Sequence record: PZ496580.1
DNA length: 64,000 bases
Origin: a phage
Strand: one strand, 5' to 3'
This document shows, piece after piece, positions 8,010 to 58,704 of this stretch; the stretch's first letter is position 1; every line of letters begins with the position of its first letter. Position numbers and translations under genes: made by a program. The notes under the pieces are model-generated. The model was not told the DNA's origin and did no database searches. It worked only from the letters and a program-made list of their open reading frames with translations.

Positions 8010-8211
8010 ATTCTAGTTCTCCGTAATACACGGTAATCCATTTTTCTTCATACTTTGTATCTTTCCAGCACACAATCCCGTTTACTGCGCAATCTTTGGA
8101 ATTGACGAATGATTCATATTGTTCTGCATCTTCCATCATTGCATGAGCGGTCTTTTCATCGAATATATCGCAGATCGCTTTATATGCTCGATAATCTTTA
8201 AATTTGCTCAT
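7996..8211 (-). CDS. hypothetical protein, MSKFKDY tandem duplicate 1
   Basis: trimmed to MSKFKDYRAY; paralogous to adjacent 8214..8423 (shared MSKFKDY..AY...MMEDA..W(K)(D/E)T.Y). Confidence 0.4.
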   Translation of the reverse strand: MSKFKDYRAYKAICDIFDEKTAHAMMEDAEQYESFVNSKDCAVNGIVCWKDTKYEEKWITVYYGELEYEIN

Positions 8212-8213
8212 AA

Positions 8214-8423
8214 TTAACACCATTCAAGAGTTTTTGAAAACACGTCTATCCATTGTTGAGTGTAGCATGTTTCTTTCCATGATACAATACGAGTAGAATA
8301 ATGGTTTTTGTTTCCAGAAAAGGACGGGCATTTTGATGCATCTTCCATCATCTTTTCGGCGAACTCTGGTTCGTATACCCGCAGGATCTGTTGATATGCT
8401 TTATAATCTTTAAATTTGCTCAT
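8214..8423 (-). CDS. hypothetical protein, MSKFKDY tandem duplicate 2
   Basis: ORF track; same N-terminal nucleotide motif as neighbour. Confidence 0.45.
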   Translation of the reverse strand: MSKFKDYKAYQQILRVYEPEFAEKMMEDASKCPSFSGNKNHYSTRIVSWKETCYTQQWIDVFSKTLEWC

Positions 8424-8688
8424 AATTGTTAACTACCTTATCAGCTTCTTTTATTGTTTTTACATCAACTGCGATAATCCGTAAAGGTTCGTCGAAGGTC
8501 CACCAATGATCGTGAATATCAGCTTGTGATTTATCACCAAAGGAATCACGAATATCATTTTTACATTTATAGCTAATATGGCCTTCATAGTCAACATAAA
8601 GGTAATTATCGAAAATCGGCGTTTTTAAGATCATACCGAAAAATCTTTCTTTGTGTGTCTTATCCAGCGTTGCAGTAATTCGCATCAT
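8410..8688 (-). CDS. paralog family member D
   Basis: ORF track; motifs NYLYVDYEG, HDHWW, IIAVDV; GAGGAA SD. Confidence 0.5.
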   Translation of the reverse strand: MMRITATLDKTHKERFFGMILKTPIFDNYLYVDYEGHISYKCKNDIRDSFGDKSQADIHDHWWTFDEPLRIIAVDVKTIKEADKVVNNYEQI

Positions 8689-8700
8689 AATATATTCCTC

Positions 8701-10295: not shown

Positions 10296-10324
10296 AGTAT
10301 AGGGGATCGGTGATCCCCTGTCAA
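10296..10324 (-). promoter_or_regulatory. sigma70-type early promoter cassette
   Basis: approx; TTGACA-17-TATACT; GGGGATCACCGATCCCC spacer. Confidence 0.5.
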
Positions 10325-10337
10325 CAACTTTTTTGAA

Positions 10338-10814
10338 TTATTTTTCTTGATGCTCGCGCTCGTACTTTTCGAAATAAAATTCTACTGGCTGGTCGTGGAT
10401 TGAAAGCAAGCCAAAGCGTTTAGCCGCTCGTAATCCCATATTGCGCTGAATGTACTTCTGGAAGTTCTCGCGTATACACTTACGCCAGTATTCTAAGCCC
10501 ATACAGCTTTTATAAAGATTGCATTGCACACATGCCGGATTCATGTTATCAAGTATATCATGCTCCGGTTTATGCATTCCTACAACCTTATACTTCCACG
10601 ATCCATCATCGTTACGGGAAATGCGCCCATTTTCATCATAGACTACTTTTGAGCGTCGTAATACTGGTTTGATATGATCCGCGTGCCAGCGTTCTCCTAG
10701 TACCTCTCCGCAATAGGCACAACGTCCACCGTATTTCATTTTCAGGATCTGGCGTTGCTCTTTCTTTGACAATTTTTTAGGTTTAGGGGCTTTCGCCCCT
10801 TCATTATCACACAT
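10338..10814 (-). CDS. HNH endonuclease (free-standing, candidate homing endonuclease)
   Basis: 158 aa; CAYCGEV...HADHIKP...C..CN motif typical of HNH; start overlaps 3' end of ligase gene by 8 nt. Confidence 0.6.
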   Translation of the reverse strand: MCDNEGAKAPKPKKLSKKEQRQILKMKYGGRCAYCGEVLGERWHADHIKPVLRRSKVVYDENGRISRNDDGSWKYKVVGMHKPEHDILDNMNPACVQCNLYKSCMGLEYWRKCIRENFQKYIQRNMGLRAAKRFGLLSIHDQPVEFYFEKYEREHQEK

Positions 10815-12303
10815 CGAATACCTCTTTTACTGTATTTGCAGTGGTCTTGTCGTAGCGAATACGTTTGATGATCGGGAGAAATAAAGAGAACTCCGGTTCA
10901 TCTTCTTTACGTGATTTGCTGCGGATATACCCGTTGCATGTCATCTCAATGACTTTTCCGATCAGGTTATGACGGTCAGCCCATAACATTTCTCGGTCAA
11001 GTTCATTTCGACGATCGAACGGAATTACACGTTCAATACCATCATCACCTTTTTCGGTTGTGGTGTCGGTCAATCCCGATCCGGTGTTAGTCATCATTCG
11101 TCCGCACGCACTACGGACAGTAAAACCGCCTACCTTATTAGGATCTTTACTATGCGGATATACATCAACAATTTCCGCGTCGAAGTCAATCACTTCTTTA
11201 AATTTAACCTGATCTTTACTGCGACGATCTTCAAATACACCATGTAAATTTTTAAGGATAATACCTTCTAAGCCCATGTTTACATAGCGATGATATACTT
11301 CGCGAGCTTCATCTATATTGTTAACTACAGTGTTTTCGATTATCTGAACACGAGGATCGTTAAGTTCTTCAACAATCTGTTTTAGTTCTTCGAATCGATC
11401 TTTATATTGCTTCGTTGCTTTCTCGTTTCCGTAATACACATCACGGTCGATAACATCCCAGACAGTGTAAACAATACATTGGGCTTCTTCTTTTGGAATA
11501 GTTCCTTTCAGTGATTTGTTGAGGATGCCATTTCCGGTCTGACGATCTGCAACAACGGATTCTTTCACTGCTTCCGCTACTGGCGTTAATGGCATTTCCT
11601 CTTCTTCAAATATCCATGACAGAGTACCGTCATAAACGCTCTCAACGAAGTTCTGCGCTGGTGTTTGCGAAAGGGTAGGCATATATACCAATTCGCCATC
11701 TAGAACAATTCCACGTCCTCGTAGACGCTCTAAAACCGCAAACAAATCATCAAGCCCCTGATAGGTATTACCTGAACGGGTATAGATTGCTAATGTTTCC
11801 CCGTCAATATCAGCCATACCACGAGCGCCATCGCTTTTAAGTTGTGCATATGCAGGATATTTGATATTAGCAATGGCCTTATCAGAATATGACGATGCAA
11901 GGTGGCACGGTTGCTGGGGGATCAGTTTCTTCCATACCTTGTTTGCAGTGGTAGCGGAACAACCGCATTCCAGGTCACGATTCAGGACCATCATTGCAAC
12001 TTTAGCATCATCTTCTGACAAGCAAGTCAGAGTATCGGTAACTAGCTGTAATGCTGCATTGCCAGTTACTTGACGTGTGGCAAGTTTATTTTTAAAGACT
12101 TGTAATGCACCGGATAAAGACAATACAGACGAATATCGCGATGGTTTATCGTATTTCTTTACGCCAAACGTAACCTGTTTGCAATATGCCAGATAAAAGC
12201 ATTCTTTCAGAGTGTCATTGCTTGCTGATTCTTTCAGGATCTTTTCTTTCAGCGATGTTTTGTCTGTTGCTGCAAGCTGATTAATGATATTAAGAATTGA
12301 CAT
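10807..12303 (-). CDS. 30: ATP-dependent DNA ligase
   Basis: ~498 aa; collinear with T4 gp30 from memory (KADGARC-type adenylation Lys region LKSDGARG, GLEGIILKN, C-terminal IKRIRYDKT); track start is GTG, likely true ATG 6 nt downstream. Confidence 0.85.
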   Translation of the reverse strand: MSILNIINQLAATDKTSLKEKILKESASNDTLKECFYLAYCKQVTFGVKKYDKPSRYSSVLSLSGALQVFKNKLATRQVTGNAALQLVTDTLTCLSEDDAKVAMMVLNRDLECGCSATTANKVWKKLIPQQPCHLASSYSDKAIANIKYPAYAQLKSDGARGMADIDGETLAIYTRSGNTYQGLDDLFAVLERLRGRGIVLDGELVYMPTLSQTPAQNFVESVYDGTLSWIFEEEEMPLTPVAEAVKESVVADRQTGNGILNKSLKGTIPKEEAQCIVYTVWDVIDRDVYYGNEKATKQYKDRFEELKQIVEELNDPRVQIIENTVVNNIDEAREVYHRYVNMGLEGIILKNLHGVFEDRRSKDQVKFKEVIDFDAEIVDVYPHSKDPNKVGGFTVRSACGRMMTNTGSGLTDTTTEKGDDGIERVIPFDRRNELDREMLWADRHNLIGKVIEMTCNGYIRSKSRKEDEPEFSLFLPIIKRIRYDKTTANTVKEVFDV

Positions 12304-12769
12304 TTTCACCTCGTTTTGTTAAACGTTCACGAATATCATTGAGGATACTACAAAATTCTGATTCGGTCAATATGGTCTTTAACGGATCAGTTCCACCTAT
12401 GCTATGACGTAATTTCTTATTTCCGGTAGCGAGTAACGCTTTACAAAATTCCGGGTTATTCCTTGCCATCGTAACAAATGCCAGATGTACCAGTCTGTAA
12501 TAATGCTCACTCATTCGATGAATCGGGCGACCCTGAAAATATAACATGTGATTCTCTATCTTTTCAGTCCTTCCGGTTCTTTTTGCTTTGCCACCGTACA
12601 TCAAAAAGATTTCTCTTTGTCTCTGAGGGTTCTTAAATCTTAGCCCCTGTAAAAATCCTTCTGTGCTGTTAATATCGCAACCAAATAGACGGAATGGTCT
12701 TTTATTGAAATTACTCAATTCACCAGATGGATAAGGTCCACCCGCATAGATATCAATTTCAGAAGTCAT
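12290..12769 (-). CDS. NADAR (YbiA/DUF1768)-like protein, candidate ADP-ribose-processing glycohydrolase
   Basis: 159 aa; GELSNF, STEGFLQGLRF and KALLATGNKKL motifs resemble NADAR family signatures. Confidence 0.5.
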   Translation of the reverse strand: MTSEIDIYAGGPYPSGELSNFNKRPFRLFGCDINSTEGFLQGLRFKNPQRQREIFLMYGGKAKRTGRTEKIENHMLYFQGRPIHRMSEHYYRLVHLAFVTMARNNPEFCKALLATGNKKLRHSIGGTDPLKTILTESEFCSILNDIRERLTKRGENVNS

Positions 12770-12923
12770 TGAAACTAATCTCGCTAATCAGAGAGAACGG
12801 ATCATAATCGTCATGAGGAATATCGATAGTAATCGAATGAGGATTTACCCATACACCAAACTGGTCTTCTTCGGTGAATACTTCGGTATGGATTTCGTGG
12901 ATGTTTACATTCATAGTTTTCAT
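12759..12923 (-). CDS. hypothetical small protein (54 aa, below cutoff)
   Basis: stop overlaps ATG of NADAR gene; weak AAGGAA SD. Confidence 0.3.
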   Translation of the reverse strand: MKTMNVNIHEIHTEVFTEEDQFGVWVNPHSITIDIPHDDYDPFSLISEISFNDF

Positions 12924-12977
12924 AATAAAAATTCCTTAATAATCAATAACTTACAAAATCATATAGCCAAAATATAG

Positions 12978-12998
12978 GCGGGATTATTACCCGCCGTT
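12978..12998 (-). terminator. intrinsic terminator after gene 31
   Basis: approx; GGCGGG-loop-CCCGCC then U-rich tail on minus strand. Confidence 0.45.
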
Positions 12999-20985: not shown

Positions 20986-21014
20986 ATTATAGCGGGGATT
21001 TCTCCCCGCGTCAA
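20986..21014 (-). promoter_or_regulatory. sigma70-type early promoter with hairpin in spacer
   Basis: approx; TTGACG-17-TATAAT, spacer GCGGGGAGAAATCCCCGC doubles as terminator-like hairpin after nrdA. Confidence 0.5.
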
Positions 21015-23313: not shown

Positions 23314-23330
23314 GGGGGCTTTCGCCCCCT
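23314..23330 (-). other. GC-rich hairpin in td-nrdA spacer
   Basis: approx; GGGGGC-TTTC-GCCCCC, no clear U-tract on minus strand. Confidence 0.3.
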
Positions 23331-34129: not shown

Positions 34130-34150
34130 AAGGGGGGCGAAAGCCCCCTA
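34130..34150 (+). other. GC-rich hairpin between genes 34 and 35
   Basis: approx; GGGGGGC-GAAA-GCCCCCC, no T-tract; possible attenuator or processing site. Confidence 0.3.
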
Positions 34151-56243: not shown

Positions 56244-57635
56244 TCAAATATAGTCTACTCGATACCGCGCACGGGTAACACCCACATATAATAACTGCAT
56301 TGCCAATTCAAAGTCAACATTGTCTGTACACATGCAAGGAGTATACAGGAACACGCGGTCTACGCTGATCCCTTGTGACTTATGAATGGTGCAAGCTGGT
56401 AATGCTTTTACATTCAAGAACATACGTTTCATCGTCCAGAAGGAATCCCAATCTGGTTTAAATTTTGGATTCTCTTTCTTCATTTCGCGATATTGTCCGG
56501 CGACCGTATTCAGATAGATAGAGAAAATGTTCTTCTGACGTTGTTCTGTCAGAATGTTGATTTCTACTAAATCCGGTTTATCTGTAGTGATTCCGACTGC
56601 ATCTAAACCAACTTTCTGATTTAGGATTTCTTTGTCTTCGTCATCATCGACGCTTTCCACTTTCAGAGTATAGCCTAAAACTGGTTGCGGATCTACCCCC
56701 GTGCAACGTAATGTAAATTCACGCGGGATGACCTCTTTAACTCGGATCATCTCACCATTGTTAAAAATAACATTGGGAATCTTCTTCCCGCGTTCATCTC
56801 GCAGATATTCGATCAATGGTTCCTGAGTAACCAGAATTTCATCTATAATCACTGGTTCATCGGTGTTATAAACGCGCTTACGTACAATTTCATTGAGTTT
56901 TTCGACGCTCTTGTTAGTGTAGGCCAGAATACGGTTTTCTAGAAGGTCTTCCGGCGTTTTAACGGTTTCGAAATAATGCTTCATAAACTCCGGCAGAGTT
57001 GAGCTATGGAATACACCCTCGTTACCGCACTGCTTTTCGAATACCCATTTACCATTACGAACAGCGGTCGCCACATCAATGATCGGTGCATTAGATCGTT
57101 TAATTTCTGTCAACTCCACGTTTTGAAAATTTTCATCCGTGAAGAAAGGAGAAATTGACGTTGCACCACTCGGATCAACTGGTCGTAACTGGTGCGGATC
57201 GCCAACTGCAATAACAACAATTCGACCGTTGATACTCTTCATGAGAATATCAAATAGTTTCTTATCGACCATACTCGCTTCATCAACAATGATGATCTGA
57301 ACATCATCTAGTTTAGGAGTATCTTTTTGCTCAAATACTTGAGTATCTTCATAGTTGGTCGGGTTAAGACGCAATAAAGCATGTAAAGTAAATGCTTGAC
57401 GACCTACCGCTTTACTCAAAACTTTTTTAGCCTGGTGGGTAGGCGTTGCCAAAACCACACCAGTCACACCCCGGCGGACCATTTCCTGAACAATGAATTT
57501 CATCATTGCGGTTTTACCAGTACCAGCCGCACCACGGACAGTTGTATGCTTCTTTTGTTCAATGCGTTTCATTAGAACATCAAAAGCATGTTTTTGTCCG
57601 TCTGTCAACATATCGAAAGTTAATACTCTGCTCAT
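56244..57635 (-). CDS. dda: Dda 5'-3' DNA helicase (SF1B)
   Basis: 463 aa; LT.GQK.AF..VMK.I..KKH....G.AGTGKT and AAPTH.AKK.L, C-terminal LYVGVTR.RY.V collinear with T4 Dda. Confidence 0.9.
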   Translation of the reverse strand: MSRVLTFDMLTDGQKHAFDVLMKRIEQKKHTTVRGAAGTGKTAMMKFIVQEMVRRGVTGVVLATPTHQAKKVLSKAVGRQAFTLHALLRLNPTNYEDTQVFEQKDTPKLDDVQIIIVDEASMVDKKLFDILMKSINGRIVVIAVGDPHQLRPVDPSGATSISPFFTDENFQNVELTEIKRSNAPIIDVATAVRNGKWVFEKQCGNEGVFHSSTLPEFMKHYFETVKTPEDLLENRILAYTNKSVEKLNEIVRKRVYNTDEPVIIDEILVTQEPLIEYLRDERGKKIPNVIFNNGEMIRVKEVIPREFTLRCTGVDPQPVLGYTLKVESVDDDEDKEILNQKVGLDAVGITTDKPDLVEINILTEQRQKNIFSIYLNTVAGQYREMKKENPKFKPDWDSFWTMKRMFLNVKALPACTIHKSQGISVDRVFLYTPCMCTDNVDFELAMQLLYVGVTRARYRVDYI

Positions 57636-57949
57636 TATCCTAAAATCCTCACCTTGCGAACACAGATAGTATTGAGTTCTCGCCGTACCCGTTCTTTTTC
57701 ATATTCAGGAATTTTGTATTCTATACCATCCCGAACAATTTCAGAAGATCGGATTATACCAAATTTTCGTTTAGGCACAACCTTGTATTTCGGTTCACCT
57801 GCCAATAGACTCTCACAATAATCTATCTGATCACACATTGACGCTAACGCTGCATCATGTGTTTCGCAAGTTAGGACGCGACCCTTCGCGTCCACTGAGT
57901 ATTGAAAGAATCCGTCTTTATCACGATAACATACAGCAAATACATGCAT
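57635..57949 (-). CDS. hypothetical protein (104 aa)
   Basis: ORF track; coupled to dda start. Confidence 0.4.
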   Translation of the reverse strand: MHVFAVCYRDKDGFFQYSVDAKGRVLTCETHDAALASMCDQIDYCESLLAGEPKYKVVPKRKFGIIRSSEIVRDGIEYKIPEYEKERVRRELNTICVRKVRILG

Positions 57950-58704
57950 TATAAACCTACCTTCGCTTTCATCAATTCAATCCACGACGCATCAATCGGA
58001 AGCCCGTATTTCACGCGTTCTTTTTGTGCTGGCGTTAAGTTCTCATACTTAGAAAGAGATTCAATCAAAACGCTGGTATATTTTAGCACGATTTCGGTAT
58101 TGTTTGCAATAGCCTTAAGTTTTTCTTCTTTCTTGTTGATTTCGCTAAGGGCTTGCTTGAGATCTGCAATTTTCTGATAACGTTCTTCCATACGGAAGAG
58201 AGTATTTTTAATCGCTCGCTCGGCTGCCTCTGCTTTCTCCGGTTCGTTGTGCTTTTTGTGGCGCTCGATTGCTAATTTCTTTTCTTCGATTGCCATTTCC
58301 TGATTTTTGATGCGATTCTCGTTAAGTTCGATCCACTCGATGTACTTCGCACGTAGGGCAATTTCATCATCAGAAAGTTTACCGTTAGTTCCTAGTTCCT
58401 GGATCTCTTTAAGAGATTCGATAGTGTGATTGCCACGGAAAGAATTGTATTTCAGTTTAACCGGAATTACATTGCCATCAACATATCCCAGATTGCAATC
58501 AATGCGCTCTAAGGAGAGTCCGTCATCACCTTCACCGAAAGCCTCACCTGAATAGGCGCAATGAGTCTGACGGTAAATGTTACGCACAGTGACTAAGCTC
58601 ATAGAGAAGTCTTTGTTGCGACGTGAAGCGCCAGCCATGATAGAGTTCAGACGGAAAACAACCAGCGCCAATTCTTCGTTAGATTTAAAAGCAAACAGTT
58701 TCAT
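57949..58704 (-). CDS. hypothetical protein with degenerate HNH-like segment and C-terminal coiled coil (srd position)
   Basis: 251 aa; CAYSGE...LSLERID.N.GYVDGNV resembles an HNH-type motif; rest Lys/Glu-rich helical. Confidence 0.35.
   Translation of the reverse strand: MKLFAFKSNEELALVVFRLNSIMAGASRRNKDFSMSLVTVRNIYRQTHCAYSGEAFGEGDDGLSLERIDCNLGYVDGNVIPVKLKYNSFRGNHTIESLKEIQELGTNGKLSDDEIALRAKYIEWIELNENRIKNQEMAIEEKKLAIERHKKHNEPEKAEAAERAIKNTLFRMEERYQKIADLKQALSEINKKEEKLKAIANNTEIVLKYTSVLIESLSKYENLTPAQKERVKYGLPIDASWIELMKAKVGL

Follow-up and report, generated by a model that had tools for sequence, protein, structure and literature searches.

RB49-like phages of the genus Krischvirus, which is widely used for phage therapy, carry an HNH endonuclease gene next to gene 30, the gene for DNA ligase. 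In RB49 this gene, ORF212c, was listed among 'putative mobile DNA elements' (Nolan 2006, PMC1524935), and a later survey gave one 'other HNH' putative homing endonuclease gene (HEG) each for RB49 and phi1 (Petrov 2010, Table 5, PMC2993671). The gene, its HNH annotation and the proposal that it is a mobile element or HEG are already known.

Several described systems invite comparison. MobA-E and I-TevIII of T4 are alike in that an HNH gene has been inserted into a T4-type genome between conserved genes or next to one. Small stand-alone HNH nicking enzymes are represented by the phage Gamma HNH class (Xu & Gupta 2013, PMC3592412), and T4 endonuclease VII (gp49) shares the H-N-N arrangement CxxC ... 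DH ... CxxCN. Homing-type nucleases can also serve the phage that encodes them: gp210, an HNH intron endonuclease of PhiPA3, harms co-infecting competitor phages (PMC11620839), and SegB is a further precedent for an HEG nuclease that benefits its phage (PMC13096335). In addition, cassettes consisting of a promoter with a stem-loop (PeSL) were described for RB49 and phi1 (Arbiol 2010, PMC2839356). Here we compare these systems with the locus found in a stretch of phage DNA of 64,000 nucleotides (PZ496580.1), which we refer to as the window.

Results

A 3.1-kb region of the window matched 60 phage records at 95–98% nucleotide identity, all of them RB49-like Krischvirus, and on these matches we assign the window to this group of coliphages. 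The ORF listing of the window contains an ATG-started ORF of 158 aa at 10338..10814 on the minus strand. It is the ortholog of RB49p212 (RB49 ORF212c, NP_891783.1), which bears the RefSeq label 'HNH endonuclease'. RB49 ORF212c, phi1 ORF212 and JSE EpJSE_00219 occupy the same position and share 96–98% aa identity with it; differences are confined to the three final codons and to the gene that follows. The locus comprises the following features:

10338..10814, minus strand: gene for an HNH (H-N-N, beta-beta-alpha-Me) zinc-finger endonuclease, 158 aa (ORF, PF01844, PHROG 2118, orthologs, dN/dS, AF2)
10807..12309, minus strand: gene 30, ATP-dependent DNA ligase, the upstream cistron (PF01068, 4e-22; PHROG 114, 1e-142)
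12290..12769, minus strand: gene 30.3 (Phage_30_3 family), first conserved gene of the 30.3-30-HNH triad (PF08010, 1.5e-38)
10807..10814, minus strand: 8-nt overlap ATGTGTGA of the ligase TGA (10809..10807) and the HNH ATG (10814..10812), read from the sequence
10821..10824, minus strand: Shine-Dalgarno sequence GAGG, 6 nt 5' of the HNH ATG and within the ligase CDS, read from the sequence

The initial annotation, which gave no strand, had described a free-standing HNH nuclease gene that abuts gene 30 and starts inside its last codons. Pfam, PHROG 2118 and the ORF positions bear this out: the start codon of the 158-aa minus-strand ORF falls within the final ligase codons, and the two genes share 8 nt. 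This overlap, ATGTGTGA, is the same in RB49, where we checked it, and in one metagenomic Krischvirus, and the record of phage Ec_Makalu_001 has a ribosome-binding site annotated for the same GAGG. In a 71%-identical metagenomic relative (L006) the overlap reads TAATG, and in a 59%-identical one (L004) a gap of 16 nt separates the two genes and the HNH gene has its own Shine-Dalgarno sequence. The 8-nt overlap suggests translational coupling of the HNH gene to the ligase gene.

Most homologs start at the position of HNH codon 15 (10772..10770, minus strand), which is TTG in the window and ATG in phage ELT3. This TTG is a possible alternative start, and its use would abolish the overlap with gene 30. 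Since the upstream ATG at 10814 has a good Shine-Dalgarno sequence and the N-terminal extension upstream of codon 15 is conserved in frame, we consider the start that overlaps gene 30 the likeliest.

Pfam HNH (PF01844) matched the protein with 24.8 bits, above its gathering threshold (21.4). The match covers the N-terminal half of the profile only, because a beta-hairpin insertion of ~35 aa splits the HNH motif; homologs without the insertion are matched over the full length. PHROG 2118 ('HNH endonuclease') was matched with E=4e-54. The motif residues, C32-x2-C35, D46-H47, N90 and C95-x2-C98-N99, show no variation among 70 aligned homologs. What had been called a canonical HNH motif thus passes the Pfam threshold, but it is strictly the interrupted H-N-N variant of the Endo VII and Cas9 type, combined with a (CxxC)2 zinc site and with Asn as the last ligand. 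The C-terminal helical region of the family is also conserved and ends in the motif PVxFYFEK.

AlphaFold2, run with the family alignment, predicted one compact domain (pLDDT 94, pTM 0.81). In the model, a helix at the N-terminus is followed by a beta-hairpin core that holds the inserted hairpin, by the catalytic helix and by the C-terminal helical region; strands 44–47 and 53–57 together with helix 96–102 form the beta-beta-alpha fold. Fold matches in the PDB were weak (E above 0.01) and involved HNH cores only (Cas9 HNH, the Gme nicking HNH 4h9d, Cap5, retron PtuB, McrA and Endo VII). By sequence, the PDB returned 4h9d alone (E=0.065), and NCBIfam gave a single sub-threshold match, to a retron HNH. 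Searches of PDB sequences, PDB and BFVD folds, NCBIfam and the literature found no characterised homolog of the family.

Gme HNH, which is among the best PDB sequence and fold matches, resembles the window protein in size and in combining an HNH core with (CxxC)2 zinc binding. However, small nicking HNHs matched weakly (E 0.04–0.07, TM 0.27–0.41). The family of the window protein has the beta-hairpin insertion and the C-terminal PVxFYFEK region, and in Krischvirus its gene is not associated with cos or terminase.

Beyond the HNH, the Pfam search detected no further domain, and the model is a single compact domain; the C-terminal DNA-binding modules of the T4 Mob HEGs have no recognisable counterpart in the window HNH. 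As no extra DNA-binding domain is recognisable, the predicted protein gives no sign of the long-site specificity that targeted exclusion would require. The initial annotation also proposed marker exclusion and a target in the ligase/NADAR region; we treat both as speculation. The ORF as such is far beyond chance, because it is conserved at 95–98% aa identity in 59 phage records with a dN/dS of 0.038. We regard it as a real, intact gene for an HNH-type DNA nuclease whose activity is predicted from motif and model.

If the gene were a mobile element, presence/absence polymorphism among relatives would be a natural thing to look for, and this check had been suggested together with the mobile reading. 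A search with the ORF by itself found 59 phage records, a count that includes several GenBank/RefSeq duplicates, at 94.8–96.9% nucleotide identity and with a single piece adjoining the ligase gene in each; aa identity was 95.5–98.1% among the tblastn matches listed. The ligase gene by itself matched 60 records, and the ORF was present at the same position in 59/59 that reach its site. The sole ligase-positive, HNH-negative record, AJ550428, was the only candidate for a Krischvirus lacking the ORF; it is a 1,491-bp fragment that ends inside gene 30, short of its 3' end, and was rejected. The ORF was also found in two metagenomic Krischvirus contigs. Hence the locus polymorphism in close relatives that characterises HEGs was not seen in the 59 records or the metagenomic relatives.

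The metagenome scan for intermediate relatives yielded these two contigs and 78 aquatic T4-like loci with 32–35% ligase identity; the range of 45–95% ligase identity is thinly sampled, by three metagenomic contigs. In L004, ligase, HNH and gp30.3 are 60%, 59% and 52% identical to those of the window and the order 30.3-30-HNH is kept, and in L006 the C-terminal half of the ligase and the HNH are both 71% identical. All catalytic residues are kept in both relatives. The gene has thus diverged in step with the ligase gene (60/59% and 71/71%), at a similar dS, and the incongruence with the history of flanking genes expected of an HEG was not seen between HNH and ligase down to 59–60% identity.

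Nei-Gojobori estimates from ten genomes gave dN/dS values of 0.038 for the HNH gene, 0.039 for the ligase gene and 0.036 for gene 30.3, with a mean dS of 0.145, 0.124 and 0.118, respectively. The GC content of the HNH gene is indistinguishable from that of its neighbours. We rejected a recent horizontal arrival on GC content and dS, which match those of the neighbouring genes. Together these values bear the mark of prolonged vertical descent alongside the ligase gene, with strong purifying selection.

The initial annotation had named universal conservation at this position as an argument against mobility. Such conservation is what we found, along with synteny, co-divergence and a ligase-like dN/dS. 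Because the gene sits in the same place in every sequenced relative and is under strong purifying selection, it behaves today as a fixed, lineage-specific core gene rather than a segregating mobile element. Purifying selection is also compatible with a selfish HEG that still meets unsampled HNH-less relatives. The useful addition to earlier work is a negative one: the HNH gene does not segregate as a mobile element in the sampled lineage, and it should therefore not serve as evidence of ongoing homing.

One further metagenomic Krischvirus scaffold, L005 (~8200–8694), is window-like as far as mid-ORF in the HNH gene and then continues with unrelated, GC-richer sequence near the contig end. We considered it as a naturally shortened HNH variant and judged it probably a chimeric scaffold, given the sequence switch near the contig end.

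Among 50,697 phage records, the nearest ligases beyond Krischvirus are at most 44.6% identical. In T4, gene 30 is followed by alt.1 and not by the HNH ORF. A Raoultella phage with one of the nearest ligases beyond Krischvirus (44.6%) has an unrelated 189-aa ORF in the place of the HNH gene, and among 80 metagenomic ligase loci the HNH family occurred in the two Krischvirus contigs only (0/78 aquatic T4-like loci). Because it is absent from T4, the Raoultella phage and the 78 aquatic loci, we regard the HNH gene as a lineage-specific acquisition among the T4-like phages examined. Searched by tblastn (E<=1e-5) against the 50,697 records, the protein matched the 59 Krischvirus records and siphovirus-type records, and the organism counts leave room for short siphovirus records only. 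Among the matches listed there was no Tequatrovirus or T-even phage and no non-Krischvirus record above ~80 kb; homology to MobA-E or T4 proteins was not found.

In three of the aquatic T4-like contigs, an HNH ORF of another kind (~185 aa) lies 0.7–1 kb downstream of the ligase gene (L079, 5462–6022; L055, 4427–4984; L088, ~1963–2371). This may be an independent insertion near gene 30.

Homologs beyond Krischvirus are 49% identical or less. The wider family consists of single-domain proteins of 120–160 aa, of which 1,546 clusters (50% identity) were matched at E<=1e-10, and is hosted by siphoviruses, prophages and conjugative plasmids. Its members were located as follows:

Bas78 and ST1UNAM: upstream of terminase
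HC6: just 5' of the terminase genes
HK225: nin region
Sasha: near primase, methylase and ParB
eiAU: between DNA polymerase and helicase
Bcep176: near recombinase
Stx phages: early-left region
Temperate-phage contigs: beside RecT or integrase

Homologs of 38–45% identity were also found in 2,684 plasmid records, the majority from conjugative plasmids. In the IncF plasmids examined (L117, 3486–3905; L118, 3486–3908) the homolog lies between trbC and traN and overlaps the traN start by 4 nt, and by this location it is stably embedded in a conserved operon, like the Krischvirus HNH gene. A search for polymorphism among IncF plasmids was uninformative on empty sites.

In Skatevirus-like Salmonella siphoviruses, a 42%-identical homolog forms a clean presence/absence indel of 463 nt (ST1UNAM versus Seszw_1; L027, 1454–1916, versus L028, ~1007–1015) with 92%-identical flanks, just upstream of a small ORF and the large-terminase genes. 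For PDP46, a relative of Sasha, no HNH is annotated in the matching region (by annotation only). Judged from these sequences, the wider family behaves as an HEG-like cassette in at least one phage group, and its sporadic distribution and insertion beside conserved genes are those of HEGs. The proposal of a mobile element is therefore justified in part, by the literature on putative HEGs and by the 463-nt indel, but it does not extend to current mobility in Krischvirus.

A consensus scan gave no sigma-70-like or late (TATAAATA) promoter match 5' of the HNH ORF. Three elements frame or lie within its putative transcription unit:

12977..12995, minus strand: terminator-like hairpin 5' of the small ORF 12759..12923, which precedes gene 30.3 (consensus scan)
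10786..10799, minus strand: GNRA-tetraloop hairpin GGGGC-GAAA-GCCCC, GGGGCGAAAGCCCC, in HNH codons 6–10 (fold)
10296..10324, minus strand: strong early promoter of sigma-70 type, TTGACA-17-TATACT (11/12 match)

At the upstream end, the record of Ec_Makalu_001 has a terminator annotated at the place equivalent to 12977..12995, and this hairpin is likely the upstream limit of the unit. We infer that the HNH gene is co-transcribed as the last cistron of a 30.3-ligase transcription unit.

At the downstream end, the promoter 10324..10296 follows directly after the HNH stop, and its spacer is a GC stem-loop (GGGGATC acc GATCCCC, GGGGATCaccGATCCCC). We identify it by sequence as a PeSL-type cassette that opens the next, variable gene block and forms the 3' boundary of the HNH unit. 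The gene after the HNH gene is ORF211 in RB49 and JSE, ORF210 in phi1, Makalu_001 and TB34, and ORF209-like in the window, SSG23 and ELT3, and a recombination junction lies in the final three HNH codons (..EHQEK versus ..ENKE). The HNH gene thereby marks where a conserved operon gives way to a hyperplastic region. Shuffling mediated by PeSL is enough to account for the downstream variability.

The GGGGCGAAAGCCCC 14-mer has three exact copies in the window (10786–10799, minus; 23315–23328, minus; 34134–34147, plus) versus 0.08 expected, and one near-copy (20994–21007, minus). The two other exact copies are intercistronic, immediately 3' of stop codons. The HNH copy lies within a 24-nt in-frame insertion (DNEGAKAP) that is Krischvirus-specific and absent from the 71%-identical ortholog in L006. 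The hairpin may modulate translation or expression of the HNH gene.

Discussion

The gene is best explained, and probably so, as an HEG-like HNH cassette of ancient capture that has become a vertically inherited, selectively maintained nuclease. The cassette would have been captured once, downstream of gene 30 in the Krischvirus lineage, before those lineages parted whose ligases today share only 60% identity. From then on it has been passed down vertically together with the ligase gene, and purifying selection has acted on it as strongly as on its neighbour. The HNH gene would be co-transcribed with the ligase gene and translated from its own Shine-Dalgarno sequence, possibly tuned by the 5' hairpin. 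In the predicted protein, four Cys would bind Zn, and D46, H47 and N99 with a divalent metal would nick or cut duplex DNA.

On this explanation the nuclease would have been kept because its activity is of use to the phage. Most plausibly it would damage the genomes of co-infecting phages without the HNH, by way of interference or marker exclusion with no need for ongoing spread; alternatively, the nuclease might have a DNA-processing role alongside the ligase. PhiPA3 gp210 offers a precedent for keeping an HNH nuclease through phage-phage competition. However, gp210 is encoded by an intron of a jumbo phage and targets the RNAP gene of PhiKZ, whereas a target and a competitive role of the Krischvirus HNH are conjectural.

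A more detailed account, which we put forward tentatively, is that of a domesticated, HEG-derived core nuclease with one of two functions. It could be a weapon against co-infecting T4-like or HNH-less genomes, or a nick- or break-making partner of the 30.3-ligase operon that promotes shuffling or amplification of the downstream cassettes. In the latter case the breaks would be made beside the hyperplastic region, and the shuffled or amplified accessory genes would be anti-defence genes. If it is true that the nuclease helps the phage rather than spreading selfishly, a further homing-type endonuclease would have been turned into a tool of competition or genome plasticity.

We consider it unlikely that the gene is an active, selfish free-standing HEG that cuts HNH-less ligase regions, is copied by recombinational repair and has swept the sampled population. 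It adjoins a conserved essential gene, as the T4 seg and mob genes do, and has been listed as a putative HEG, yet there is no empty site in the 59 records or the metagenomic relatives, so that unsampled ones would be needed. Its siphovirus homologs are indel cassettes between conserved genes and the gene is lineage-specific among T4-like phages; against this stands its co-divergence with the ligase gene without incongruence. The catalytic residues are intact, but a fixed selfish HEG should decay, whereas the dN/dS equals that of the ligase gene. The variable downstream region is accounted for by the shuffling of PeSL cassettes. Unlike the T4 Mob HEGs, moreover, the window HNH is not polymorphic in close relatives and has neither a promoter of its own nor a recognisable extra DNA-binding domain.

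A structure-specific recombination or repair nuclease, Endo VII-like or of the type found in Rec modules, might act with the ligase on branched or nicked DNA. We find this improbable. The tight coupling to the ligase gene would suit such a role, but none of the homologs seen in other phages lies beside a ligase gene, although many occur in replication or recombination modules. The H-N-N active-site layout is that of T4 Endo VII, secondary PHROG matches point to 'endonuclease VII' families (6.6e-9 and 4.8e-7) and BFVD neighbours are labelled recombination endonuclease VII; however, Pfam Endonuclease_7 (PF02945) gives family members 13–15 bits against a threshold of 23.6, and the Foldseek probability to 1e7l (Endo VII) is 0.20. 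A T4 gp49 sequence used as a query against the window gave only a chance-level match (E=3), to the HNH ORF. RB49 has a bona fide gene 49 (RB49p061; L036, 11135–11608, outside the window), which leaves no gap to fill, and we reject the HNH as a substitute for Endo VII.

A packaging-associated HNH that assists terminase, like HK97 gp74, is very improbable. The closest non-Krischvirus homologs (Bas78, ST1UNAM and HC6) do lie just upstream of terminase genes, but the terminase-adjacent homolog is dispensable, since close relatives are without it, and T4-type TerL has its own nuclease. In Krischvirus, the gene belongs to an early-region operon far from genes 16/17. An hhalign comparison of gp74 with the HNH family gave a probability of 0.85%, with only the CxxC..DH core aligned; on this value and the place of the gene in the ligase operon, we reject a gp74-like packaging HNH.

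A decaying relic or non-functional ORF, for which the mid-ORF divergence of scaffold L005 might speak, can practically be dismissed, as the scaffold looks chimeric near its contig end and the dN/dS of 0.038, the invariant catalytic residues and the intact ORFs in all listed genomes argue otherwise.

Two observations concern other genes. RB49 encodes a Dam methyltransferase (L036, 11923–12735, outside the window), which bears on self/non-self discrimination by phage nucleases. Within the window, the ORF at 57949..58704 (minus strand), earlier described as containing a degenerate HNH-like segment, turned out to be a homolog of the anti-sigma factor Srd: it matched phrog_1400 (6e-74), resembles HNH PHROGs only remotely and gave no match to Pfam HNH. 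Two genes downstream of it, the long ORF 56244–57635 may encode a helicase.
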